A stretch of 64,000 nt of DNA from a virus. The notes beneath the pieces are model-generated. The model was not told the origin of the DNA and searched no databases. It saw only the letters and a program-made list of their open reading frames with translations. Shown here piece by piece: positions 1,033 through 56,701 of this stretch (positions are counted from its first letter, which is position 1; each line of letters opens with the position of its first letter). The translations under genes were made by a program, and so were the position numbers. The stretch is taken from positions 23,306-87,305 of IMG/VR virus record IMGVR_UViG_3300044633_000899; one strand, given 5' to 3'.

Positions 1033-1059
1033 CCCACCGTAAATGGTGGGTTTTTTTTT
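1033..1059 (+). terminator. intrinsic terminator
   Basis: hairpin cccaccgtaaatggtggg followed by T9. Confidence 0.7.
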
Positions 1060-1105
1060 GATCATATCATTTGACATTAAAAAACGTTTCACCTATATTT
1101 CATCT

Positions 1106-1942
1106 ATGAATGTATTAAGTTTATTTGATGGATTATCTTGTGGTCAAATTGCCCTTAATAGAGTTGGAATTAAATACAACAAGTATTTTGCGTCAGAGAT
1201 TGACGAATACGCGATTAAAGTAACCCAACAGAATTATCCAGGAACAACCCAAATTGGTGATGTAACACAAGTTAAAGGATCTGAGTTACCACAAATTGAT
1301 CTTATCATTGGTGGATCACCTTGTCAAGGATTTTCATTTGCGGGAAAAGGTTTAAATTTTGACGATCCAAGAAGTGCTTTATTCTTTGAATTTGTTAGAT
1401 TAGTAAAAGAATGTAATCCGAAATACTTTTTACTTGAAAATGTTAAAATGAAAAAAGAACACGAAGATGTTATTACTGAACATATGGGGATTAAACCTAT
1501 TAAGATTAATAGTAAATTAGTATCAGCACAAAGTAGGGAAAGACTATATTGGACTAATATTCCGAACATAAAACAACCGGAAGATAAAGGTATTTTAGTT
1601 AAAGATATTTTAGATTATACCACCGAACATAAACTTTTAACTGAGAAGGGTATTAAATCACAAATCCATTATGCCAAAAATTACAAGTCAATAGGTAAAT
1701 CACCAACATTAACTAGTGAATTGGCGCACGGTTGGGGTAAGAACATCACACCCAAATGTTATATTGAAATAAAAGCAATTACTGGTGAGGATAGGTTATT
1801 CTCACCATTAGAATGTGAACGATTACAAACAGTTCCAGATAATTACACTTCAGTTGTATCAAATACACAAAGATATAAAATGTTGGGGAATGGATGGACA
1901 GTAGATGTAATCGCACATATATTTAAAAATATTGAAATATGA
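1106..1942 (+). CDS. DNA (cytosine-5)-methyltransferase, tandem paralog 1
   Basis: Motif I LSLFDGLSCGQ, motif IV GGSPCQGFSFAG (PCQ), ENV, C-terminal QRYKMLGNGWTVDVI; start moved to ATG 1106 (MNVLSLFDG) because the track start overlaps the terminator. Confidence 0.9.
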   Translation: MNVLSLFDGLSCGQIALNRVGIKYNKYFASEIDEYAIKVTQQNYPGTTQIGDVTQVKGSELPQIDLIIGGSPCQGFSFAGKGLNFDDPRSALFFEFVRLVKECNPKYFLLENVKMKKEHEDVITEHMGIKPIKINSKLVSAQSRERLYWTNIPNIKQPEDKGILVKDILDYTTEHKLLTEKGIKSQIHYAKNYKSIGKSPTLTSELAHGWGKNITPKCYIEIKAITGEDRLFSPLECERLQTVPDNYTSVVSNTQRYKMLGNGWTVDVIAHIFKNIEI

Positions 1943-2736
1943 ATGTATTAAGTTTATTTGACGGCATGTCAGTAGGACAAATTGCTCTTAATAGAGTTGG
2001 AATTAAGTATGACAAATATTTTGCATCAGAGATTGATAAATTTGCAATACAAGTAACACAATGTAATTATCCAGAAACAACCCAAATTGGGGATGTAACA
2101 CAAGTGAAAGGTTCCGATCTGCCACAAATTGATCTTATTATTGGTGGATCACCTTGTCAAGGATTTTCATTTGCTGGTAAACAATTGAATTTTGATGATC
2201 CAAGAAGTGCTTTATTCTTTGAGTTTGTTAGGTTAATTGAAGAATGTAAACCAAAGTATTTTCTACTTGAAAATGTTGTGATGAAAAAAGAATATGAAGA
2301 TATTATCACACAACATATGGGTGTAAAACCAATTCTCATAAATAGTAATCTTGTTTCAGCACAAAATAGAAAACGACTTTATTGGACCAACATTCCAAAC
2401 ATAGAACAACCAGAAGATTTAAATATAACTATGTCTGACATACTTTTAAGTGGTCAACATATACTTGTCTCAAAACAAAAAAAGGAACATAAACCTGGTG
2501 GTGATAAAACGGCAACATTACTTGCTAGAGACTATAAAGGATTTGGTAATCAACAAATGAGTGGTGCTATGGACAATGGTAATATTAGAATGTTTACACC
2601 TGTAGAATATGAAAGATTACAAACTGTTCCAGATAATTACACCTCTGTCGTCTCAAACACCCAAAGATATAAAATGCTTGGAAATGGATGGACTGTTGAT
2701 GTAATTGCACATATATTTAAAAATATAGAAATATGA
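1939..2736 (+). CDS. DNA (cytosine-5)-methyltransferase, tandem paralog 2 (different TRD)
   Basis: Same N- and C-terminal catalytic motifs as paralog 1; ATGA overlap with upstream gene; central ~70 aa unrelated. Confidence 0.9.
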   Translation: MNVLSLFDGMSVGQIALNRVGIKYDKYFASEIDKFAIQVTQCNYPETTQIGDVTQVKGSDLPQIDLIIGGSPCQGFSFAGKQLNFDDPRSALFFEFVRLIEECKPKYFLLENVVMKKEYEDIITQHMGVKPILINSNLVSAQNRKRLYWTNIPNIEQPEDLNITMSDILLSGQHILVSKQKKEHKPGGDKTATLLARDYKGFGNQQMSGAMDNGNIRMFTPVEYERLQTVPDNYTSVVSNTQRYKMLGNGWTVDVIAHIFKNIEI

Positions 2737-3641
2737 ATGTATTAAGTTTATTTGATGGGTTATCTTGCGGTCAAATCGCATTGAACCGTGCTGATATTAA
2801 ATATGAAAATTATTTTGCTTCCGAAATTGACAAACACGCAATCAAGGTAACGCAACACAATTACCCAAACACAATACAACTTGGAAGTGTTACAGAAATT
2901 AAAGGGTCTGATTTACCACAAATTGATCTTATCATTGGTGGATCACCGTGTCAAGGATTTTCATTCGCTGGTAAACAATTAAACTTTGATGATCCACGAA
3001 GTAAATTATTTTTTGAGTTTGTTAGACTAAAAAATGAGTTAAATCCAAAATACTTTTTACTTGAAAACGTTGTGATGAAACAAGAGTTCCAGGATGTAAT
3101 AACCGAGTATCTGGGTGTCAAACCAATTAAGATTAATAGTAAATTGGTATCAGCACAAACCAGAGAAAGATTATATTGGACTAATATACCAAATTTAAAA
3201 CAACCAGAGGATTGTGGAATAACATTAAATGATATCTTGGAGGATATTGGTATAAATGGTGAATCTTTTGATAAAACAAAATTAAATAAAGCGACAATAT
3301 TAGGTAGAAGATTAGATTCTCGTGGTAAACGGATGGATTATGACAAAACAATCCCAATTACACAATGTTTGGAGGTTAGAGCGACAAATAGAGATAAAAG
3401 TAATTGTTTAACAACGGTTGCAAAAGATAATGTTTTAACAACACTACCAATTGGTCGTCACGTTGACGCATTTAAAAAGAATTTACCATTCAGATATTTT
3501 ACAATAAAAGAACATTGTAGACTACAAACCGTACCAGATACTTATTTTGATGGTGTTGCGAGTGAAAATCAAATTAGAAAAATGTTAGGAAATGGGTGGA
3601 CAGTTGATGTTATTTCACATATTTTTAAAAATATTTTGTGA
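2733..3641 (+). CDS. DNA (cytosine-5)-methyltransferase, tandem paralog 3 (different TRD)
   Basis: MNVLSLFDGLSCGQ, GGSPCQGFSFAG, ENV, MLGNGWTVDVI; longer unrelated central region. Confidence 0.9.
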   Translation: MNVLSLFDGLSCGQIALNRADIKYENYFASEIDKHAIKVTQHNYPNTIQLGSVTEIKGSDLPQIDLIIGGSPCQGFSFAGKQLNFDDPRSKLFFEFVRLKNELNPKYFLLENVVMKQEFQDVITEYLGVKPIKINSKLVSAQTRERLYWTNIPNLKQPEDCGITLNDILEDIGINGESFDKTKLNKATILGRRLDSRGKRMDYDKTIPITQCLEVRATNRDKSNCLTTVAKDNVLTTLPIGRHVDAFKKNLPFRYFTIKEHCRLQTVPDTYFDGVASENQIRKMLGNGWTVDVISHIFKNIL

Positions 3642-3669
3642 AAGTTGTTATTTATTCAAAATAAAGTGT

Positions 3670-3677
3670 TACATTTG
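3670..3677 (+). promoter_or_regulatory. Bacteroidetes-type -7 promoter element TAcaTTTG
   Basis: tacatttg directly upstream of an ORF-free GC-enriched region; same motif precedes many CDS starts in the window. Confidence 0.45.
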
Positions 3678-3684
3678 TACTGTT

Positions 3685-3991: not shown

Positions 3992-4414
3992 TTAAGCAAC
4001 CCAAATTACAACTTGATTATCACCAACTCTAAAAGGATTTGAAGGTGATTCCCTAAATACAGTTGAAATTTCTAATCTCCAGTAAGTACCCCCAATATGT
4101 ATAGGGTTTATCGCTAACGCTAATTCCCGTTCAACTGATTTAACGACAAATGGTTTTTTGTTAAAAATTTCTCTATTAATAATTTTTTCGGCGATATCAC
4201 CCTTAACTAGTGAAATAAGTTCTTTAATTTCTCTATTTTCAATAGGGTTCTGATTATAATCTGTTCCATCAAGTTCTGGTCTTGTAGATCTATCAAAAGC
4301 ATGACTCCTCCTGTCAACTTCAAAATTAAATGAAACCTCAAGATTTGAAACAACTTGTGCTATTTTCTTTTCAAGTATTAAATGTTTTCTAATTGACTCT
4401 CTAAGTAGTGACAT
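3992..4414 (-). CDS. hypothetical protein (140 aa)
   Basis: Minus-strand ORF converging on the ncRNA candidate; no motif recognised. Confidence 0.5.
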   Translation of the reverse strand: MSLLRESIRKHLILEKKIAQVVSNLEVSFNFEVDRRSHAFDRSTRPELDGTDYNQNPIENREIKELISLVKGDIAEKIINREIFNKKPFVVKSVERELALAINPIHIGGTYWRLEISTVFRESPSNPFRVGDNQVVIWVA

Positions 4415-4462
4415 ATCTATTAAACTTTATTATAAGTATTTATTTGTTATATTTTAGTCATT

Positions 4463-5548
4463 ATGAAAGAAAAATTTTTACCTTGGTTTATGTTAGTGTG
4501 TGCGTTAGGTCTATCTGGTACCGCAGCATACTATAGTGTTATTGGATTATCCGTTGTGTTTATTAGTGTTGCAACACCAGTTATTATTATGGGATCATTC
4601 CTTGAGATCTCAAAAATCGCAATTGCGACCTATTTACACGACAAATGGAATGAAACATACGGAATGTTAAAGTTCTATATGACAACTGCCTTAATTACAT
4701 TATCAATAATTACATCAATTGGTATTTACGGACTTTTGAGTACTGGATTCCAGGGAAATATTGCCAAAATGGAAATCAATGAAAAACGAATTAAAAATAT
4801 TGAGGTTAAGAAGAATCGGTTTATAGAAATAAAAGATGAATTAATTGATGAGAAAACAATATTAAATGGTGATATAACAAAATTGAGAGATGGACTATCA
4901 AATAATACAACGACACAAACAGTTGACAGAAAAACAGGACAATTAATAACCAAGGCCAACGAGGGTAATAGGAAATCTTTTGAAACTCAATTACAACAAG
5001 CACAAGTCAGACGAGACGATATTTCAAAAAAGATTGACAATTGTAACGACAGTATTACCAATTTGGATGTTCAAATCTTAGATATGGAATCAGCAGAAAT
5101 TGAAGGTAGTGAACTTGGGGCTATAAAATACATTGGAGAAATATTAGATTGGGATATAAAAAAAGTTGCCAACTTATTTATATTGATATTAATTTTTGTT
5201 TTTGATCCGTTAGCGATAACATTAGTGATTGCAACAAATCAATTGTTTAAATCAAACAAGAAAAAGAATCCGACAACACAAAAAATTGAGACGGATAATA
5301 CCAAAATAGAAACAGAAAAAATTTGGGAAAAGGCAAACCAATTACGAGAAGAAGGTAAATTAGAACCACCAACCACAGAAGACATTATTAATGAACCAAC
5401 GGCTTTGGCCAATTCACAATACCGAAATGAATATAATATAGAACGGGAACCATTAAATCTGAACCAAGAGATAAATTGGGTTCAGACAAGTGAAGAAAAT
5501 AATGGTGAGGTTAATCAAAACATAAAAAGATTGATATATAAGAAATAA
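4463..5548 (+). CDS. membrane protein with three N-terminal TM helices and a long coiled-coil
   Basis: Hydrophobic N-terminus (FMLVCALGLSGTAAYYSVIGLSVVFISVATPVIIMGSF...), K/E-rich heptad-like middle, second hydrophobic stretch (LFILILIFVFDPLAITLVIA). Confidence 0.6.
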   Translation: MKEKFLPWFMLVCALGLSGTAAYYSVIGLSVVFISVATPVIIMGSFLEISKIAIATYLHDKWNETYGMLKFYMTTALITLSIITSIGIYGLLSTGFQGNIAKMEINEKRIKNIEVKKNRFIEIKDELIDEKTILNGDITKLRDGLSNNTTTQTVDRKTGQLITKANEGNRKSFETQLQQAQVRRDDISKKIDNCNDSITNLDVQILDMESAEIEGSELGAIKYIGEILDWDIKKVANLFILILIFVFDPLAITLVIATNQLFKSNKKKNPTTQKIETDNTKIETEKIWEKANQLREEGKLEPPTTEDIINEPTALANSQYRNEYNIEREPLNLNQEINWVQTSEENNGEVNQNIKRLIYKK

Positions 5549-7069: not shown

Positions 7070-7480
7070 ATGAAAAACACACTTATTCTTTTTTTTATAT
7101 TATTAACCAATATTTCTTTTGGTCAAATAATTGAATCTGACACAACAACACTATTAATACCAGTTAATGTTGGAAAATCTATTTTGGTTGACTTGAATGA
7201 TTTAGAGCGATTGAAAAAACAAGAAGTGACGTATAAAAATGAAATACAACAACTAGAAAACAAAGTATTTAAAAACGAAAAGATAATAACTAGTTTAGAG
7301 GATAAGGATAAAAAAAACAATGAGATAATTGAATTAAAGGATTCAAAGTATAAATTAGTTGACGAGGAAAACAAACAATTACGTGATGATATTAAAAAAA
7401 TCAAAACTAAGAATGTAATTATTGAAATTGTTGGTGGATCAATTATAGCCGCATTAACTTATATTATAACCTTTAAATGA
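7070..7480 (+). CDS. exported coiled-coil protein (signal peptide, C-terminal TM)
   Basis: N-terminus MKNTLILFFILLTNISFGQ, K/E coiled-coil, C-terminal IVGGSIIAALTYIITF. Confidence 0.5.
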   Translation: MKNTLILFFILLTNISFGQIIESDTTTLLIPVNVGKSILVDLNDLERLKKQEVTYKNEIQQLENKVFKNEKIITSLEDKDKKNNEIIELKDSKYKLVDEENKQLRDDIKKIKTKNVIIEIVGGSIIAALTYIITFK

Positions 7481-8574
7481 TGGAAGACACTATTAAACAA
7501 GATATAACACAAATGGTTAACAGTTTAACGGCAGGAAATAATGACGCCAGAGTTGCTGCAAACAAATCCTTGAATGAAGATGGTAATGAAAGAAATCCTG
7601 AAGACTATTTAGTTGAACCCAACGATATGGTTATTATTTTAAATCTAGTTAAAAATAAAAAACTATCTGCGAATAAAATAAAACAAAAAATTAGAGAGTA
7701 TCTTAAAGATCCTAACACACTAAAAAGTTTCTTAAAATCAATAATTGACAGTAGAGGTAAAAAAGAAACAAAAGAAATGACTGGTACATCTTCAGCTGGG
7801 GGATATTCAGAACCGTTATTCACGAAAATGGAAACAAAAGAAGCGACAGGTTCATCCTCATCTGGTTCATATGAAACACCAAAGATATGGGCTAAAAGTA
7901 CGAATAAAAAAGACTGGAGAGGTAAATCAAAACCACAAATACCTGGTGGTAAGTTTGTTCAGGTTAAGAAAAAATGTAAAAAGTTTCCATATTGTAATCA
8001 AGGTGATATTAACGCCCTTAATATTTTTGAAGATAAAATGTTGATAAATGCGGTAAATAAGGTTTCGCAAAAATTTGGTATAAATAAAGATATAATCAAA
8101 GAAATAATTGAAGTTGAGATTAGTAATACAACAACCGAAAATCAATACAAACTAATTAAAGAAAATATTTCTTTAAAAGAAAAATTAAGGAACCTAATCA
8201 AAAAGATTGGTTTTGAATCTGTAACAAAGATTGTTGGATCTTTGGATAAAACTTTTGAAATCTTTGATATTAAAGAACCGATGGATTTCTTAAACTTGTT
8301 TAACGATCTGGATGTTGTTCAGAGTGAAGACCTTGACTCTTGGACGTTATATCGTTATAAAAAAGGTCATAATTTTATTGTTTACGATAGAGAAAGTGAT
8401 GAGATTTATATTAATTATTATGAAATTTGGTCGGTTTTGGAAGACAAATTTGGTCTTAAATACTCTGAAATACAGGAACTTACAAAGATATGGTTGGATG
8501 AGGTCTACAATTTAAGGGGTGTCACATCATTGATAATTGGTGTTGATGACAGTTGTATGAGGTCTACAATTTAA
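7477..8574 (+). CDS. repeat-associated family protein A (about 220-aa unique N-terminal part + conserved ~130-aa module)
   Basis: C-terminal 140 aa about 75% identical to ORFs 26575-26997, 53750-54148 and 55672-56121; contains internal TENQYKLIKENISLKEKL; the last codons are encoded by the 36-nt repeat. Confidence 0.7.
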   Translation: MMEDTIKQDITQMVNSLTAGNNDARVAANKSLNEDGNERNPEDYLVEPNDMVIILNLVKNKKLSANKIKQKIREYLKDPNTLKSFLKSIIDSRGKKETKEMTGTSSAGGYSEPLFTKMETKEATGSSSSGSYETPKIWAKSTNKKDWRGKSKPQIPGGKFVQVKKKCKKFPYCNQGDINALNIFEDKMLINAVNKVSQKFGINKDIIKEIIEVEISNTTTENQYKLIKENISLKEKLRNLIKKIGFESVTKIVGSLDKTFEIFDIKEPMDFLNLFNDLDVVQSEDLDSWTLYRYKKGHNFIVYDRESDEIYINYYEIWSVLEDKFGLKYSEIQELTKIWLDEVYNLRGVTSLIIGVDDSCMRSTI

Positions 8575-8656
8575 GGGGAGTCACACCCTTTCATATAACT
8601 TATGCAATTGACTTAGAGTAGTTGGATGAGGTCTACAATTTAAGATAGTTCATACT
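8493..8656 (+). CRISPR. CRISPR-like mini-array A: 36-nt repeat x3 (third copy degenerate in its 3' half), spacers 23 and 33 nt
   Basis: GTTGGATGAGGTCTACAATTTAAGGGG(A/T)GTCACA(C/T)C at 8493-8528, 8552-8587 and 8621-8656; unique intervening sequence. Confidence 0.4.
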
Positions 8657-11386: not shown

Positions 11387-11782
11387 ATGGAAACGGTTCA
11401 AGAAAGTAATTATGGGGATTTAACAAATTTAGCGTTAATAACAGATGGTATACAAAAATTATTTCCAACAGGATTAGGTGTTTTGGTTTACGAATTAAAC
11501 GTGTATGATTTTTATAATATCAAAAAACAATTTCCAGAAATAGACGAAAACAAAAATCGTTTTAAAATTGATATTTCAGGTGTTGAAGTTGTTTTCATAC
11601 TTAAAGGTAGTCTTGAAAAAGAACTAACTAAACTAGAAGAACAAACTAAACTAGAAGAACAAACTAAACTAGAAGAACAAACTAAACTAGAAGAAGAAAC
11701 ATCAACGGAAGTTTTAGAACCAGTAATTAATGACTCATTTTTAAATAAACTTTTAAAATTATTCAGTAAAAAACGTAGTTGA
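11387..11782 (+). CDS. hypothetical protein with (EQTKLE)x4 repeat
   Basis: ORF encoding a perfect hexapeptide tandem repeat. Confidence 0.5.
   Translation: METVQESNYGDLTNLALITDGIQKLFPTGLGVLVYELNVYDFYNIKKQFPEIDENKNRFKIDISGVEVVFILKGSLEKELTKLEEQTKLEEQTKLEEQTKLEEETSTEVLEPVINDSFLNKLLKLFSKKRS
11624..11697. repeat. 18-bp direct tandem repeat x4 (aactaaactagaagaaca)
   Basis: Perfect tandem copies inside the CDS. Confidence 0.8.
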
Positions 11783-16112: not shown

Positions 16113-16695
16113 AATTTAATGGGTTATATGTTTTAATAATTTTTGTTTCTCTATTAAAATGTTTACCATTACCTTTCATTTGGTTATATAATGTTATATC
16201 ATATATTGGTAATTTATCTAATTTACCGAGAGTATTTAAACTGACTAAAATTTCATAATTAACCCCATTTATACTTTTTAATCTCAACACATCTTTATAA
16301 CCTAATTTCTGTAAAGAAATCATTTTCCATATATTATCTATATTTACTTTTACAATATTAATCCCCTCATCAATTTTAGGGTTAACAAAATTAGGATCAC
16401 TTGGGAATGTCTGTTCTCTAAAATTCCTTTCTGAAAAATGAGGATTAATTTTAATATTAAAATAGGCTTTTTTAACTTGATTTGTTTTTTTATCTGTATA
16501 TTGACCTAATAAAGGACTTATTTCTTTAGCTAAAATTTTTTGTGTAATATATGTTTGTTTGATTAACTTTAAAATTTCATCATCTATATGTTCGTAGTTA
16601 GTACCCTCATTCAATGGTTTACGACCAAGGTATTGAATACTCACAATATGATATACAATCTCCTCTCTCAAAATTTTTTTAATAATTTTTTTCAT
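16111..16695 (-). CDS. leader-peptide family protein (N-terminus MKKIIKKILREEI)
   Basis: Shares its N-terminal ~12 aa with ORFs 50020(-), 49065(-), 45564(-) and 20038(+). Confidence 0.6.
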   Translation of the reverse strand: MKKIIKKILREEIVYHIVSIQYLGRKPLNEGTNYEHIDDEILKLIKQTYITQKILAKEISPLLGQYTDKKTNQVKKAYFNIKINPHFSERNFREQTFPSDPNFVNPKIDEGINIVKVNIDNIWKMISLQKLGYKDVLRLKSINGVNYEILVSLNTLGKLDKLPIYDITLYNQMKGNGKHFNRETKIIKTYNPLN

Positions 16696-23209: not shown

Positions 23210-23329
23210 TTTTGTAGATATTTATGAAATACAAAAAAACACACACCCACCCTTTCTGTTGGTAAAACATAAAATCTCAAAAAATTAAAATATTTTTTTG
23301 AGATTTTTGTTTTTATAATAATTTTTTTA

Positions 23330-24561: not shown

Positions 24562-24951
24562 ATGGAAAAAACAATATACATCGTAAGAGGATGTCCGGGA
24601 TCAGGGAAATCAACATTTGCTAAAACACTGGGTGGAATACACATTGAGGCGGATCAATACTTTGTTGATGCTGATGGTAATTACAATTTTGATGGTAGTA
24701 AAATTAAAAATGCTCACGCTTGGTGTTTAGATAGGGTTAAAACGAATATGGCGACAGGTAGAGATAAAATAGTTGTCTCAAATACCTTTACACAAGAATG
24801 GGAATTCCAACCATACCTTGAACTTGCAAAAGAATATGGTTACAAAACTTTCACTATTATAGTTGAAAATTATCACGGAGGTATAAATCAACACAATGTT
24901 CCAGAAGACAAAATAGAACAAATGAAAAACAGATTTAGTATAAATTTATGA
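24562..24951 (+). CDS. P-loop polynucleotide-kinase-like protein (kinase domain only)
   Basis: IYIVRGCPGSGKSTFA Walker A at the extreme N-terminus, as in T4 Pnk; 129 aa. Confidence 0.5.
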   Translation: MEKTIYIVRGCPGSGKSTFAKTLGGIHIEADQYFVDADGNYNFDGSKIKNAHAWCLDRVKTNMATGRDKIVVSNTFTQEWEFQPYLELAKEYGYKTFTIIVENYHGGINQHNVPEDKIEQMKNRFSINL

Positions 24952-26574: not shown

Positions 26575-26997
26575 ATGGAAGACAAAATAAAAGAAAAATT
26601 AAAGGATTTAATCAAAAATGTTGGATTTAAATCAACGATAAGAGTTGTCGGATCCTTGGATAAAACATTTGAGATCTTTGATATTAAAGAACCAATGGAT
26701 TTCTTAAATTTATTTAATGATTTGGAATCGGTTCAGAGTGAAGAACGTGAAGATTGGACGTTATATCGTTATAAAAAAGGACATAATTTTATAATTTACA
26801 ATAGAAAAAATGATTATGTTCATATCAATTATGATGAAATTTGGTCAGTTTTAGAAGACAATTTTGGACTTAACTACTCTGAAACACAAGAACTTACACA
26901 GAGATGGTTGGATGAGGTCTACAATTTAAGGGGAGTCACACCATATATTCAACTTTTTGAAAATCAGCAATATAGTTGGATGAGGTCTACAATTTAA
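26575..26997 (+). CDS. repeat-associated family protein B
   Basis: About 75% identical to the modules in 7477, 53750 and 55672; ends ...WLDEVYNLRGVTP + spacer-encoded YIQLFENQQYS + WMRSTI (second repeat copy read in a different frame). Confidence 0.7.
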   Translation: MEDKIKEKLKDLIKNVGFKSTIRVVGSLDKTFEIFDIKEPMDFLNLFNDLESVQSEEREDWTLYRYKKGHNFIIYNRKNDYVHINYDEIWSVLEDNFGLNYSETQELTQRWLDEVYNLRGVTPYIQLFENQQYSWMRSTI

Positions 26998-27073
26998 GGG
27001 GAGTCATACCAACACCCCCTTCCAACTTTTAGTAAACATTGGATGATATCAACAATTTAATATATTTATTTTT
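26907..27073 (+). CRISPR. CRISPR-like mini-array B: 36-nt repeat x2 plus a degenerate third copy, spacers 32 and 27 nt
   Basis: Repeats at 26907-26942 and 26975-27010 (1 mismatch), degenerate copy about 27038-27073 (attggatgatatcaacaatttaa). Confidence 0.4.
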
Positions 27074-27526
27074 ATGAAGATCATAATAACCGAAGAACAA
27101 TATAACCTACTACAAGATATTGATGATGGGTTAATAACCTACTCAAGTATATTTAAACCTAAGATTAAGATTTTAGTTATATTTAAAAATAATGAAAATT
27201 ACGAAAATCTTATAACGATATTCAATGAGTATGGTTATGGTTTTTATGTACCAAACCAAGAATTAATAATTATTAATGGTGAAATATTTTTAAATTCTAA
27301 CGATTTAACAATGGACGATTTAAGGTTTATTGAGGCTCACGAAATTAGTCACTTACTTTTAAATCACGATGGACCAAGATCCGAGAAAGACGAAATGGAT
27401 GCCGACATAGGTGCGTACATATTATTAACAAGACATAATATTTCAACAGAACGATTAGTGGATGAATTTGAATTTAGACATAATGTTAAATTTGATGAAA
27501 AACTAACTAAAAATTTTGATATTTAA
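27074..27526 (+). CDS. ImmA/IrrE-like HExxH metallopeptidase with leader-like N-terminus (MKIIITEEQYNLL)
   Basis: FIEAHEISHLLLNHDG closely matches the ImmA/IrrE (COG2856) zinc-peptidase motif. Confidence 0.55.
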   Translation: MKIIITEEQYNLLQDIDDGLITYSSIFKPKIKILVIFKNNENYENLITIFNEYGYGFYVPNQELIIINGEIFLNSNDLTMDDLRFIEAHEISHLLLNHDGPRSEKDEMDADIGAYILLTRHNISTERLVDEFEFRHNVKFDEKLTKNFDI

Positions 27527-32507: not shown

Positions 32508-32547
32508 CCCCCCAGGTAAAAAAATATCTTGGGGGGTTTGTTTTTTT
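32508..32547 (+). terminator. intrinsic terminator
   Basis: cccccc aggtaaaaaaatatctt gggggg + T-run. Confidence 0.75.
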
Positions 32548-32584
32548 AAAAAAAATGTTGTACATTTGTATAAAATATAAACAA

Positions 32585-46816: not shown

Positions 46817-47425
46817 ATGAGTTATAGTAGAGAACAAATTGAAACGGCAGTTAAAGCCAAAGGATATAAGTGGTTTGAAGACGCTTCAAATAAAACTTAT
46901 GATGTAAACATTGTTGGAATAAGAAATAACACATCAACTGTTGCTGATAAAGTAACAAATGTATTTGACGATTTCATTACAATATCGTTTAAAAATGAGA
47001 AAGGTTTTTGGGAATTTTATTGTTGGAACGCAACTACAGATCCAGGTAAAAAAGGTGTTGAAAAATTTACAAATAAAAATGGCGTTGCTAGATTAGTACC
47101 AAATCAATACAGAGGTGTTTGGATGATTGATAAACATCAAGGTAAATATGACGCATTATGTCAAAGATTAGATAACGTGACTGTATTTCGTGATGCTAAC
47201 AAGGATATGACATATGATGAAAAAGTTACAGACACTGGTATGTTTGGTATTAACATACACAAGGCCGGTCAAGATTCCACATGGGTTGACGATTGGAGTC
47301 ACGGATGTCAAGTGTTTAAAAGGGTTAAAGATTTTGATGTGTTTATGAAAATTTGTAAAAAAGCGGCTAAGATACACGGTAATAAATTCAGTTATACATT
47401 ATTAGAAAGTACTGATATTATTTGA
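46817..47425 (+). CDS. YkuD-like (L,D-transpeptidase fold) protein
   Basis: INIHKAGQDS...WSHGCQVF resembles the His...S-H-G-C catalytic motif of YkuD domains. Confidence 0.4.
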   Translation: MSYSREQIETAVKAKGYKWFEDASNKTYDVNIVGIRNNTSTVADKVTNVFDDFITISFKNEKGFWEFYCWNATTDPGKKGVEKFTNKNGVARLVPNQYRGVWMIDKHQGKYDALCQRLDNVTVFRDANKDMTYDEKVTDTGMFGINIHKAGQDSTWVDDWSHGCQVFKRVKDFDVFMKICKKAAKIHGNKFSYTLLESTDII

Positions 47426-47444
47426 TATTTAAAATCTTTTTTAT

Positions 47445-47452
47445 TACATTTG
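47445..47452 (+). promoter_or_regulatory. -7 promoter element TAcaTTTG
   Basis: tacatttg 4 nt before ATG 47457. Confidence 0.4.
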
Positions 47453-52413: not shown

Positions 52414-53257
52414 TGATCAAATAATTAGTGAAGTTAGAAACGAGTCAATGTTAAATAAAAAACAAGATCGTATAATAACGATTGATGACACAATAATTAA
52501 AAAATACATCAATATTAACGTATATGGTTACGATAATGATTATAATAATTTAAATATTGATTATATCTCCAAACATAGAGGTTTTCCAAATTTAATTAAT
52601 AGGTTATTATATGAGGTTTATGTTGATTATTTAAATGATAATGAAGATAAAACAATGACTGGTATTGTAGGTATTTTTACACCAAATGAATATACCAATT
52701 GGTCAATACTTAATTATTTTGGTGGACATAAATTTGTTAAAGACATTTTAATCCAGGAGTTTAAAAACGATAAAACAACACAAAAAACGCCAAAAGAATT
52801 TTACCGTTGGTTAATAACCAATAAGAGTATGTTGTTTGGTGAAAAATCACAGATTTTAAAAAAGTTGGTTAGAACAAACCTAAATACTTTTAATAAAGGA
52901 ACAAAAACGGAATTATTTTTAACAAAAGTACTTAAAGAATCTGGATTTGATGTTAAGTACTTTCCGCCAGGTTCAACATATGATAGAAAATATGGTATTG
53001 ATTTAATTATAAATAACACCTCATACCAAATTAAAGAATTAGTTGGGATTGAGGAATTAAATGATGGGTATTATTTAAAAACACCATTACCTAAAGAATA
53101 TAAAAACCTTAATGTTAAACGAATAATGTTAGTTGATATCAATAATGGTGAGTTTGTATCGTTTCCGAATAAAGATTATGTTGTTAGTCAGAAAGATAAT
53201 GCTTTTATTGTTGATAAATCTACTAAACTAAAAGTTGGAAATATATTTAAACTATGA
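52406..53257 (+). CDS. hypothetical protein (283 aa)
   Basis: ORF. Confidence 0.5.
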   Translation: MNNDQIISEVRNESMLNKKQDRIITIDDTIIKKYININVYGYDNDYNNLNIDYISKHRGFPNLINRLLYEVYVDYLNDNEDKTMTGIVGIFTPNEYTNWSILNYFGGHKFVKDILIQEFKNDKTTQKTPKEFYRWLITNKSMLFGEKSQILKKLVRTNLNTFNKGTKTELFLTKVLKESGFDVKYFPPGSTYDRKYGIDLIINNTSYQIKELVGIEELNDGYYLKTPLPKEYKNLNVKRIMLVDINNGEFVSFPNKDYVVSQKDNAFIVDKSTKLKVGNIFKL

Positions 53258-53760
53258 AAATAATTATAACCGAAAGCCAATATAAATTCTTAACTGAAAA
53301 TTTTGATTCTGTTTTGGATATATACTCAAAGAAAAATAAAGGTGAAACATTAAAACCTTCCGAATTGGATGTGTTAAAAGTTTTTAATGATTATGTAAAA
53401 AAAGGTGGCACACCAGAAGAATTTGTTTTTAATCAAGACGATGTTTATGGATTTGATGAGAGAGAAGGTATGTTATTTAATTATAATCTAAAAGGTCGGC
53501 CATTACAATTTGAGTTCACTGAAGAAACTGAAACCGAAAATGATATTGACTATTTTGGTGAAATAACATTTGATGGTGATGAATACCTCGGCGTTATTGT
53601 AACGGATAAAAATGGTTATTTAATTGATTATGATTTTTACTCAACGTTAACAAAAGGTGATGTTAGATTACAGGAATTATTAATTGTTGATAATAGTGAT
53701 GCAGAATTTAGAAATTTTTTACAAGAAATGGTTATTAACGTTTTAATAAATGAAAAATAA
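53254..53760 (+). CDS. leader-peptide family protein (MKIIITESQYKFL)
   Basis: N-terminal motif shared with 27074 and 55672. Confidence 0.5.
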   Translation: MKIIITESQYKFLTENFDSVLDIYSKKNKGETLKPSELDVLKVFNDYVKKGGTPEEFVFNQDDVYGFDEREGMLFNYNLKGRPLQFEFTEETETENDIDYFGEITFDGDEYLGVIVTDKNGYLIDYDFYSTLTKGDVRLQELLIVDNSDAEFRNFLQEMVINVLINEK

Positions 53761-54148
53761 TTTAAAAGAAAAATTAAAGGACTTAATCAAAAAGGTTGGT
53801 TTTGAATCAACGATAAGAGTTGTCGGATCCTTGGATAAAACTTTTGAAATTTTTGACATTAAAAAGCCAATGGATTTCTTAAATTTATTTAATGACCTAG
53901 AATCAGTTCAGAGTGAAGAACGTCAAGAGTGGACATTGTATAGATATAAAAAGGGACATAATTTAATGGTTTACAATAGAGAAAATGATTATGTTTATAT
54001 CAATTATGATGAAATTTGGTCAGTTTTGGGAGATAAATTCGGTCTTAACTACTCTGAAATACAGGATCTTACAAAGAGATGGTTGGATGAGGTCTACAAT
54101 TTAAGGGGAGTCACACCTAACGAAGTATACTATTACGTTTGGTGCTAG
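53750..54148 (+). CDS. repeat-associated family protein C
   Basis: MKNNLKEKLKDLIKKVGFESTIRVVGSLDKTFEIFD...WLDEVYNLRGVTP then spacer-encoded NEVYYYVWC stop. Confidence 0.7.
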   Translation: MKNNLKEKLKDLIKKVGFESTIRVVGSLDKTFEIFDIKKPMDFLNLFNDLESVQSEERQEWTLYRYKKGHNLMVYNRENDYVYINYDEIWSVLGDKFGLNYSEIQDLTKRWLDEVYNLRGVTPNEVYYYVWC

Positions 54149-54183
54149 TTGGATGAGGTCTACAATTTAAGGGGAGTCACACC
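54082..54183 (+). CRISPR. CRISPR-like mini-array C: two perfect 36-nt repeats, one 30-nt spacer
   Basis: GTTGGATGAGGTCTACAATTTAAGGGGAGTCACACC at 54082-54117 and 54148-54183. Confidence 0.4.
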
Positions 54184-54231: not shown

Positions 54232-55668
54232 GTGAAAATTTTATTAAACGAGAAACAATTCAAAAATATTGTAGTTCTATTATCTGAAGATGACGATAAA
54301 AAAATAAACGTAATGTTTGTTGGTGACAGCCATAGTGATGGCCAAGGGTACACCTGGAATTATGATTTAGAGAAACAACATCCAGAATGGAATGTAACAC
54401 ATATTGTAAAAGGTGGTAAAACAACAGAGTGGATGTTAGAAAATATGTTACCAGAATTATCAAAAAAACATTATGATTTAGTTTTCATATTAGGTGGTAC
54501 AAATGATGTTATGTCACCATTACCAATAGAGACACCAATCAACAATATTCAAAAAATGGTTAATGCAGTCAACACCCAAGGTGGAAAAGCAATTGTTGTT
54601 ATCGGATTTGATAGTGAATCTATTATGGATGTAAATAAATTACGAACAACGAAATATTGTGACAAAGAATGTTTAAAAAAGTTTAAACCAAAAAGAGTTG
54701 AATTCCAACGTAAATTAGAAAGTTCAATCCAAAACGCAACAATAGTACCACCACTTGTTGGTGATTACACTTGGGCAAATGATGGTATACACGTCGGCGG
54801 ATCAAAACACAAACTATTATCAAGTACCGTTGAAAATTATATAACAAAAGGTGAGGTTAAAAACCAAAAAAAATCACTAATTAATCAACTATTAGACAAG
54901 TATACAGAAGTAATCCAAAACAAAAGTACAATTGACGCAATAAGTCCAAGAAAAGAGATTAAATTATTACAAATACTTTTTTCAATTGCTGAAGGTCAAA
55001 AGAACAGAAATTTTTCTGGTACATTAGATTCTGACACCATTACTAGACTTAAAAAATATCAAACAACTAATAATTTACCGAATACAGGTATTTTTGATTA
55101 TCAAACAATTTATAGTATAAACAACAAGATAAGCCCAAAATTAAATAAAGTTTTAAAACCAGAAATGGCAAAAGAAACAATATCAGATCCTGGATCCTCA
55201 ATTGTTAGTACGAGTAAATTAGTTAATGATTTAAAATCATTTGGTTTAACTGAAAATGCTGCAAAAGGTTTGACAGCAAACGCATATGGTGAAAGTGGTT
55301 TAAATTATAAAGCGAAAGGTGATTCGGGTTCCTATGCGAAGAACACTACAAAATCAATTGATATTGGTGGTAAAAAATATTGTTCATTTGGTTTATGGCA
55401 ATTTAATGTGTGTGGTGGGTTAGGTATTGAGTTTTTAAAAAAATACAATACACTTAACAGTGGTAATACGGATAAAATAGAAACTCTGTTTGATTATAAT
55501 AAACAATTAGAGATTATGGGTTCTAAGATAATGAAAGAACAATCTAAAGGTGATAAGAGTGTTAAAACTTGGATTGACTGGATTGTTGATAATGTTGAAC
55601 GACCTGCTGACAAATCTGGTGCAAAACAAAAACGACAAAATTTTGCTAAACAACAAGGTTGGATATAA
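54232..55668 (+). CDS. three-domain cell-wall hydrolase: SGNH/GDSL esterase + PG-binding domain + phage tail-lysozyme-like domain
   Basis: VMFVGDSHSDG and ILGGTNDV (SGNH blocks I and III); LDSDTITRLKKYQTTNNLPNTGIFDYQT (PG_binding_1-like); C-terminal GLWQFN-containing domain. Confidence 0.55.
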   Translation: MKILLNEKQFKNIVVLLSEDDDKKINVMFVGDSHSDGQGYTWNYDLEKQHPEWNVTHIVKGGKTTEWMLENMLPELSKKHYDLVFILGGTNDVMSPLPIETPINNIQKMVNAVNTQGGKAIVVIGFDSESIMDVNKLRTTKYCDKECLKKFKPKRVEFQRKLESSIQNATIVPPLVGDYTWANDGIHVGGSKHKLLSSTVENYITKGEVKNQKKSLINQLLDKYTEVIQNKSTIDAISPRKEIKLLQILFSIAEGQKNRNFSGTLDSDTITRLKKYQTTNNLPNTGIFDYQTIYSINNKISPKLNKVLKPEMAKETISDPGSSIVSTSKLVNDLKSFGLTENAAKGLTANAYGESGLNYKAKGDSGSYAKNTTKSIDIGGKKYCSFGLWQFNVCGGLGIEFLKKYNTLNSGNTDKIETLFDYNKQLEIMGSKIMKEQSKGDKSVKTWIDWIVDNVERPADKSGAKQKRQNFAKQQGWI

Positions 55669-55671
55669 GTG

Positions 55672-56121
55672 ATGAAAATAATAATAACTGAAAATCAATA
55701 TAAATTGATTAAAGAAAATATTTCTTTAAAAGAAAAATTATTGGGTTTAATCAAAAAAGTTGGATTTAAATCTGTTGTAAAAATTGTCGGATCTTTGGAT
55801 AAAACATTTGAAATTTTTGATATCAAAAAACCAATGGATTTCTTAAACTTGTATAATGATTTGGAATCAGTTCAGAGTGAGGAACAACCTGATTGGACTT
55901 TATTTCGTTATGAAAAACACAAAAATTTAATGATTTACCATAGAAAAAATGACTACGTTTACATCAATTATGATGAAATTTGGTCAGTTTTGGAAGATAA
56001 ATTTGGTCTTAACTACTCTGAAATACAAAAACTTACAGAGAGGTGGTTGGATGAGGTATACAATTTAAGGGGAGTCACACCAACGGAAGGAAATTGGAAC
56101 CAAAAAGATTGGGTTGGATGA
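55672..56121 (+). CDS. repeat-associated family protein D with leader MKIIITENQYKLIKENISLKEKL
   Basis: Module about 75% identical to A-C; stop codon lies inside the second repeat copy. Confidence 0.7.
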   Translation: MKIIITENQYKLIKENISLKEKLLGLIKKVGFKSVVKIVGSLDKTFEIFDIKKPMDFLNLYNDLESVQSEEQPDWTLFRYEKHKNLMIYHRKNDYVYINYDEIWSVLEDKFGLNYSEIQKLTERWLDEVYNLRGVTPTEGNWNQKDWVG

Positions 56122-56148
56122 GGTCTACAATTAAAATAGCCACACAAA
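56046..56148 (+). CRISPR. CRISPR-like mini-array D: 36-nt repeat + 31-nt spacer + 3'-degenerate repeat
   Basis: Repeat at 56046-56081 (1 mismatch), second copy 56113-56148 diverges after about nt 20. Confidence 0.4.
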
Positions 56149-56213
56149 TAACAATAATATAATTTGTTAATATCAAATTATATTATTATTTTTTTAATCA
56201 AAAGTTAATCATT

Positions 56214-56600: not shown

Positions 56601-56669
56601 ATTTTCTTGGTTTGATATAAAATAATTAATTTTTTTTTTAAAAATGTTTTGTGGTTTGAAAAAAATGAT

Positions 56670-56677
56670 TACATTTG
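56670..56677 (+). promoter_or_regulatory. -7 promoter element TAcaTTTG
   Basis: tacatttg; the track ORF start at 56675 lies inside it, so the start was moved to 56702. Confidence 0.4.
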
Positions 56678-56701
56678 TACTGTAATCTTAAATTAATTAT
56701 T

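Follow-up and report, generated by a model that had tools for sequence, protein, structure and literature searches.

CRISPR-like mini-arrays that begin inside a conserved gene of jumbo phages from freshwater lakes

Archaeal portogloboviruses SPV1 and SPV2 and various phages carry CRISPR mini-arrays (short palindromic repeats, clustered and regularly interspaced) without cas genes, with repeats identical to those of host arrays and spacers aimed at related viruses (PMC11656645). Here we analyse 64,000 nucleotides (nt) of a virus, positions 23,306 to 87,305 of IMG/VR virus record IMGVR_UViG_3300044633_000899 (the window), in which four mini-arrays of a 36-nt repeat each start within the 3' end of a paralogous gene encoding a module of about 130 amino acids (aa). 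We favour the reading that these are orphan viral CRISPR mini-arrays with a coding leader and a coding first repeat, kept up to date by an integrase of the Cas1-Cas2 type and exploited by Cas proteins that act in trans, and regard this reading as probable though well short of secure. Like known viral mini-arrays, they have one to few spacers, no adjacent cas genes, Cas proteins presumed to act in trans, and spacers that differ between related viruses (PMC11656645). They differ from them in the coding leader and first repeat, in the presence of several arrays per genome, and in a repeat that is homologous to the C-terminal coding sequence of family members without arrays. Whereas known mini-arrays match a host repeat, no such repeat was found here when the exact core was searched in 185,579 genomes.

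A second class of related elements, the RNA anti-CRISPRs (Racrs), are single repeats that do not code for protein, have a promoter of their own and mimic a known host repeat, and they are documented for all CRISPR types except type VI (PMC10651486). Like Racrs, the lake elements resemble CRISPR repeats and occur in phage genomes apart from cas genes, and some gene copies bear a single repeat. Unlike Racrs, they include spacers that turn over, and their repeat falls within an open reading frame (ORF). Additionally, the genes that carry the first repeat overlap upstream genes and have no promoter of their own.

CRISPR leaders are treated as non-coding, and the origin of new repeats and arrays is an open question in the field. 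The arrays of huge phages reported by Al-Shayeb et al. in 2020 are said usually to accompany phage-encoded Cas effectors and to have non-coding leaders. Our arrays are likewise compact and belong to a phage of about 300 kilobases (kb), but no effector was seen in the genome parts examined, and the arrays are scattered by structural and lysis genes. Off-target integration by over-expressed Cas1-Cas2 in E. coli reportedly duplicates non-CRISPR sequence into a new repeat-spacer-repeat unit, the neo-CRISPR arrays of Nivala, Shipman and Church in 2018. Integration of this kind would account for the birth of an array within a gene; in our case the product is a family that is stable, widespread and evolving. 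Our literature search returned no description of a coding CRISPR leader, of a first repeat within a gene end, or of this repeat. New relative to viral mini-arrays and solitary repeats are the coding leader, the derivation of the repeat from coding sequence, the multiple copies in a T4-like jumbo phage, and the absence of a detectable host counterpart.

The repeat, GTTGGATGAGGTCTACAATTTAAGGGGAGTCACACC, occurs nine times in the window, at four loci and always on the + strand. Seven copies have at most three mismatches and are joined by two degenerate terminal copies, where chance would give none. At all four loci the first repeat (R1) forms the last 12 conserved codons of the gene, coding for L-D-E-V-Y-N-L-R-G-V-T-(P/S), so that a tryptophan is directly followed by LDEVYNLRGVTP, and the tryptophan codon immediately 5' of R1 is invariant. 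A unit consists of the gene of about 130 aa up to this tryptophan, R1, a spacer and R2, sometimes a further spacer and R3, and then a degenerate terminal repeat. Translation runs on into the spacer (23–33 nt in the window) and meets its stop codon either there or, out of frame, within the following repeat, as GTT GGA TGA (VG, stop) or TGG ATG AGG TCT ACA ATT TAA (WMRSTI, stop). A preliminary description of this DNA had placed the leader-proximal repeat at the 3' end of a conserved gene of about 130 aa, as we find at all four loci; the spacer-encoded tails and stops that it quoted are accurate, and its estimate of protein identity among members was about 75%, where we measure 71–80% against the copy starting at 53750.

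The repeat was then collected from public collections by DNA pattern alone, yielding 35 IMG/VR and 49 metagenome loci, all from freshwater lakes; the distribution extends over hundreds of contigs from lakes on several continents. The module ORF reads into R1 in the same frame in 102 of 114 arrays, that is, in every array with enough upstream sequence, the other 12 being cut by contig ends or array fragments. Homologs in other phages do abut repeats, a check that had been proposed from the window, and the suggestion that the gene acts as the array leader holds in that it occupies the leader position of every array. On some contigs (L077, L083) four or five gene-array units stand back to back. 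Single repeats make up 22 of the 114 array calls, several of them gene copies with the in-gene repeat alone.

Homologs down to 54% identity carry an identical core of 24–27 nt (L086, L087, L090–L092, L112), and homologs at about 33–38% identity have no repeats (L089, L110, L111). Array-less paralogs also coexist with array-bearing ones on the same contigs. The array-less proteins keep W-L-x-x-x-Y-x-[LI]-x-x-V, followed by 12–15 further residues. Because this homologous C-terminus is kept where arrays are absent, the repeat is native coding sequence, and the arrays take the place of the native C-terminal end. Arrays appear to have been born inside the gene and then to have spread with its paralogs. 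It had been proposed that homologs lacking the repeat and ending before it would speak against this coupling; distant homologs do lack repeats, but they retain the equivalent segment and the residues beyond it.

One sub-lineage (L013, L048, L053, L055 and L066; for example, L013, reverse complement, 4387–4489) carries an acidic tail. Its single spacer is conserved and codes for DE(V/R)DEEDDEL, its R1 has drifted under protein constraint, and its non-coding R2 keeps the consensus core. The GGGGAAT of its terminal repeat pairs with a downstream ATTCCC that is followed by a T-run, forming a terminator hairpin. This lineage looks like a fossil array co-opted as coding sequence and terminator. In a 309-kb relative, unit 4 of the window (55669–56200) is missing at the syntenic position (L086:11987–12150) and the neighbouring genes are conserved; gene-array units are gained or lost as cassettes.

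These phages provide a concrete and widespread case of an integration site within a conserved gene, with a repeat homologous to the coding sequence of array-less relatives. Side by side are found paralogs without an array, genes whose only repeat is the in-gene one, arrays that look active, and a fossil one whose spacer now encodes a conserved acidic tail. With such intermediates available, the birth and decay of arrays become testable by comparative genomics and time-series metagenomics. There are also practical implications for annotation: tools for array detection that mask ORFs, or that throw out repeats lying in coding sequence as false positives, will overlook such arrays, and gene prediction will yield dozens of C-terminal variants of a single protein that are spurious.

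The unit has not diverged evenly over its length. Among the window copies, pairwise DNA identity is 80–88% over the 323 nt upstream versus 33–36 of 36 positions in the repeat; as some upstream 36-nt windows reach an identity of 0.89–0.90, the jump is no more than suggestive on the evidence of the window. Among 79 unique gene-plus-repeat units taken from other contigs, synonymous divergence (dS) is 0.82 in the 107 upstream codons, 0.13 in repeat codons 1–8 and 0.63 in the last four codons, and third-codon positions in the first eight repeat codons are 83–100% conserved. Upstream of the repeat, conservation falls from codon position 2 to 1 to 3, and the ratio of non-synonymous to synonymous divergence (dN/dS) is 0.42, a pattern that marks the module ORF as a real gene. 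Its 110–150 codons stay open in all 79 sequences, in genomes of 29% GC.

Within the repeat, only positions 1–4 and 7–27 are frozen, and positions 28, 29, 31 and 35 evolve as ordinary codon positions. The first two bases of repeat codon 2 vary freely (GA, GG, TC, TT and others) and its third base, T7, is invariant. The conserved 5' core, GTTGnnTGAGGTCTACAATTTAA, persists in non-coding R2 copies of the lineage whose R1 has drifted, and 24–27 nt of it are kept in the L112 homolog of just 54% protein identity. No secondary structure more stable than that of shuffled sequences was found for the repeat, nor any covariation between its variable positions 5–6 and 28–31. Judged from these comparisons, the repeat is constrained at both the DNA and the protein level. 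The preliminary description had proposed DNA-level rather than protein-level constraint after an identity jump at the repeat: the jump is real, modest in the window and decisive in the 79 outside units, and the DNA constraint stands, but the peptide motif retained by array-less homologs shows that the protein is constrained as well. A four-fold duplication covering the whole gene equally, which would have accounted for the conservation, does not fit the unequal divergence.

The module family comprises 753 clusters at 50% identity. An AlphaFold model of the unit 3 gene product, built on a deep alignment, has a predicted local distance difference test score (pLDDT) of 93.4 and a predicted template modelling score (pTM) of 0.87, and comprises four helices, a sheet of four strands, two more helices and a last strand, part of which the spacer encodes in this copy. 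The model matched no known fold, the module had no match in Pfam, PHROGs or PADLOC, and a sequence profile search of the PDB gave spurious matches only. Among GenBank phages, no DNA or protein relative of the locus was found. In some database proteins, P0137 (760 aa), P0252 (425 aa) and P0236 (346 aa), the C-terminal half of the module is present three to five times per chain.

The collected arrays have the general anatomy of CRISPR, for which near-identical direct repeats of 23–47 nt and unique spacers of similar length are diagnostic: the repeat is 36 nt long, spacers are 28–33 nt long with a mode of 31, and 100 of 144 spacers are unique. A degenerate terminal repeat is also present, retaining about 20–27 nt at the 5' end and decaying at the 3' side. 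The expected non-coding, A/T-rich leader is not seen; the upstream 330–450 nt and the first repeat form a conserved ORF instead. Mean spacer GC is 35.3% versus 28.9% for the window, a difference of about seven standard errors. Spacer content also turns over fast between strains with conserved flanks. The array orthologous to 54082–54183, with an identical downstream flank, has a single spacer in the window and two each in L086 and L087/L088, none of them shared, and the array orthologous to 56046 has one spacer in the window and three in L087. When L003/L035 are compared with L005, four distal spacers are common and the gene-proximal spacer alone differs. Additionally, the variable 3' part of the repeat is identical in R1 and the later copies of the same array, as expected if new repeats are copied from R1.

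The tails encoded by spacers comprise 3–17 residues, and about 30% of spacer lengths are multiples of three, which is the chance level and shows no frame preservation. The tails look like a by-product, and an exchange of C-terminal tails mediated by the repeats, once entertained as their function, is unsupported. Outside arrays, spacer matches of at least 20 nt were absent from the window and 85 related loci (about 0.6 megabases (Mb), a sample biased towards array flanks), so that the targeting of related viruses known from other spacers was not seen in that set. Matches returned by BLAST to Staphylococcus and Lactobacillus phages were discarded as spurious, their sole source being a 'spacer' of L059/L082, TAAACCCGTCGAATTCGACGGGTTTAAAATT, which is a perfect palindromic hairpin of terminator type.

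According to the favoured explanation, a Cas1-Cas2-type integrase would insert new spacers of about 30 nt at the gene-embedded R1 and duplicate R1 in doing so. Integration at this site would make downstream repeats match R1, with the variant 3' part co-varying within an array, and would swap the native last 12–15 residues or so for arbitrary spacer-encoded tails, which may be closed by the stops that the following repeat has in its other two frames. The array would be transcribed by read-through from the gene. Its frozen 5' core (positions 1–4 and 7–27), which terminal repeats retain, may be the part recognised as RNA or DNA, and this retention would fit a CRISPR RNA (crRNA) with a 3' repeat handle. 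The Cas proteins would act in trans, encoded either by the host, probably one of the Bacteroidota, or in another part of the phage genome, and the arrays would probably serve in conflicts with other mobile elements or in interfering with the host's CRISPR. It seems to us unlikely that the 3' coding end of this phage gene family is instead the repeat of a self-contained, virus-specific repeat-spacer system, independent of any known Cas system and with the module as a putative dedicated factor, for example a repeat-binding one. If it were, it would be a natural case of a CRISPR-like array arising de novo within a protein-coding gene.

Several observations weigh against the orphan-array explanation. 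To our knowledge, a coding leader has no precedent, and the evidence for polarised acquisition is one comparison, that of L003/L035 with L005. No protospacer was found for 98 spacers in 50,697 GenBank phage records, or for four spacers in IMG/VR searched with exact 22–23-mers. The 64-kb window contains neither a cas gene nor an ORF exceeding 646 aa, and no cas gene lies within 10 kb on either side of about ten other copies on contigs of 283–318 kb, a survey that covered about a third of such a genome. The repeat core was found in no bacterial array among the 185,579 species-representative genomes, a search confined to exact positions 7–27 in a collection where arrays of metagenome-assembled genomes (MAGs) assemble poorly; the sole core match there was a 1.8-kb phage-like contig binned with a Flavobacterium MAG. 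IMG/VR and the JGI metagenomes yielded no array of more than six repeats. Finally, no anti-repeat of a trans-activating CRISPR RNA (tracrRNA) was detected on either strand of the window or of 1.4 Mb of loci.

The combination of 36-nt repeats and 30-nt spacers is the geometry of type II and type VI-B systems, both of which are common in Bacteroidota. This geometry, the GTTG start and the 5' part retained in terminal copies together speak for a crRNA whose repeat handle lies at its 3' end. The type II geometry is present, with no cas9 in the parts examined and no anti-repeat in the window or the 1.4 Mb of loci, where candidate anti-repeats proved to be merely the antisense of the repeats themselves and T-rich noise. 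Against the repeat of PspCas13b, our variants share 21–24 of 36 positions in sense and 16–19 in reverse orientation, and about 1 in 10,000 random 36-mers of the window reaches 20 of 36. The most frequent variant has a CACC end that disrupts the terminal stem, and it does not fold; a CAAC end occurs in only about half of the variants. Spacer purine content (0.515, versus 0.575 for the sense and 0.425 for the antisense strand of coding sequence) shows no strand or purine bias. A type VI-B (Cas13b) assignment was rejected, since the similarity is too weak, CAAC ends are found in half of the variants, no large ORF is nearby and purine bias is absent. Given the weak PspCas13b resemblance, the CACC end and the lack of purine bias, we assign no CRISPR type. 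Overall, the arrays resemble the type VI-B and II-C arrays of Bacteroidota (PMC8092290) in their 36-nt repeats, spacers of about 30 nt, GTTG start and some CAAC ends, and differ from them in that cas13b, cas9 and tracrRNA were not found in the DNA examined here. Type VI-B loci without cas1 and cas2, with spacers acquired in trans, are described from Flavobacterium columnare (PMC8092290).

Among the other explanations, an RNA decoy resembling a Racr, in which repeats mimic a host repeat and titrate host Cas from abundant phage mRNAs with the spacers as passengers, is in our view improbable. Such a decoy would suit arrays that are multi-copy (four per 64 kb), always tiny (at most six repeats), embedded in operons, lacking cas genes in their vicinity and without detected targets, as well as the 22 single-repeat calls with several in-gene repeats alone, and Racrs are documented for many CRISPR types (PMC10651486). 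Yet a pure decoy does not need spacers of CRISPR-like length and foreign composition that are replaced wholesale between flank-identical strains, no host repeat to mimic emerged from the exact-core search of the 185,579 genomes, and the Racrs described so far are solitary, do not code for protein and have a promoter of their own (PMC10651486). We consider it slightly more doubtful that a non-CRISPR generator, possibly involving the module protein, inserts short DNA at the gene's 3' end, creating hypervariable C-termini or a new nucleic-acid memory. The absolute coupling of gene and array, the native coding origin of the repeat, the absence of a detected Cas or host counterpart and a confident protein model of no known fold would all be compatible with it. 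However, a 36-nt repeat with spacers of about 30 nt and a degenerate terminal repeat is exactly the product of Cas1-Cas2 integration, and tails that are short, unselected for frame and often ended after 3–10 residues make C-terminus diversification unlikely; array-less paralogs in the same genomes further imply that the protein needs no array.

T4-type phages recombine efficiently. Recombination could in principle have left the arrays as scars, with gene conversion homogenising the 36-mers, unequal exchange making the arrays, and the repeat having no RNA function. The multi-copy paralogs with shared ends and the recombination proficiency of T4-type phages fit this idea, as would the low repeat dS if it means homogenisation. 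Even so, we judge it very unlikely: conversion within a genome cannot give the same 24–27-nt core in 54%-identical lineages from different continents, the sharp boundary exactly at the tryptophan-leucine junction is left unexplained, and unequal exchange cannot yield about 100 unrelated, GC-richer spacers of about 30 nt. That the pattern is an artefact or ordinary feature, either a tandem-peptide-repeat protein or a recent whole-gene duplication, is extremely improbable. A few ORFs do pass through two in-frame repeats (for example, P0013 and L044), but spacers mostly alter the frame, five of the six frames of the repeat contain stops, the unit diverges unevenly along its length and most repeat copies are non-coding. 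A protein tandem repeat called falsely as CRISPR was accordingly rejected, with about 30% of spacers in multiples of three and most ORFs stopping in the spacer or the next repeat.

The gene-array units lie in + strand operons of the T4-like jumbo phage of about 300 kb, where arrays adjoin T4-type gp20 portal, gp23 capsid and baseplate genes and also lysis genes. The nearest cultured capsids, those of a Microcystis phage and Flavobacterium phages, are 43% identical. In a related phage (L031, 6734–9835, - strand), an intein splicing domain (Pfam PF14890, E = 5e-16) splits the T4-type gp20 portal protein, whose gene a gene-array unit adjoins. The motif TTTG-N17-21-TAnnTTTG, which we take to be the Bacteroidota promoter consensus, occurs 10 times on the + strand of the window versus 3.0 +/- 1.9 times in shuffles, and several copies sit 5–20 nt before gene starts. 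Conserved intergenic boxes at 56634–56683, 3634–3683, 32537–32568 and 47421–47452 end in TTACATTTGTACTGT, or in TAnnTTTG with TTTG before it; their resemblance to Bacteroidota-type promoters gives a hint of the phylum of the host. A host from the Bacteroidota is likely. Across the window, Rfam gave no family at gathering score, and around the array only noise.

All four units of the window are on the + strand. In unit 1 the gene (7477–8574) is a 365-aa ORF whose C-terminal 134 aa or so, from about nt 8131, form the conserved module, and its stop lies inside the array, in R2 read out of frame. The mini-array (8493–8656) comprises R1 at 8493–8528 (coding, two mismatches), a 23-nt spacer at 8529–8551, R2 at 8552–8587, a 33-nt spacer at 8588–8620 and a degenerate terminal repeat at 8621–8656 with 24 nt intact at its 5' end. 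The gene of unit 2 (26575–26997) encodes 140 aa from its ATG, with R1 as the last 12 conserved codons, and its tail, YIQLFENQQYS-WMRSTI, is the spacer plus R2 read frame-shifted. Its mini-array (26907–27073) is made up of R1 (26907–26942), a 32-nt spacer (26943–26974), R2 with one mismatch (26975–27010), a 27-nt spacer (27011–27037) and a strongly degenerate terminal repeat (27038–27073).

The unit 3 gene (53750–54148; 132 aa) has W111 as the codon just 5' of the repeat, and its start overlaps the stop of the upstream gene at 53254–53760, which makes co-transcription of the two probable. In its mini-array (54082–54183), R1 (54082–54117) codes for LDEVYNLRGVTP, the 30-nt spacer (54118–54147) contains the stop codon of the gene, and R2 (54148–54183) is identical and non-coding; the next gene starts at 54232. 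Unit 4 has a gene of 150 aa (55669–56121) with an N-terminal MKIIITENQYKLIKEN extension and a TGA stop in R2, in the +1 frame. Its mini-array (56046–56148) holds R1 (56046–56081, one mismatch), a 31-nt spacer (56082–56112) and a degenerate terminal repeat (56113–56148). Directly 3' of it is a terminator-like hairpin (56153–56194, + strand) with a 14-bp A/U stem followed by U7, a folding energy (dG) of -10.8 kcal/mol and z = -5.0 versus shuffles.

Different gene families also share N-terminal motifs. The peptide MKIIITE(S/N/E)QY(K/N)(F/L)L starts unrelated small genes at 27074–27118, 53254–53298, 55672–55716 and 24562–24610, and a start of the same type is found at L089:1896–1940 and, in the alignments, in many members of the module family. 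A second shared N-terminus, M..IIKKILREE, occurs for example at 16695–16111 and 50655–50020 on the - strand. Such motifs could represent a cassette for recombination or shuffling, or else a signal for targeting. Elsewhere in the window, four to five tandem 18-nt units at 11619–11708 code for (E/K)LTKLEEQ-type repeats inside an ORF. Three tandem paralogous genes resembling C5 cytosine DNA methyltransferases (299, 265 and 302 aa) lie at 1043–3641, with 80–85% DNA identity across 300-nt stretches.

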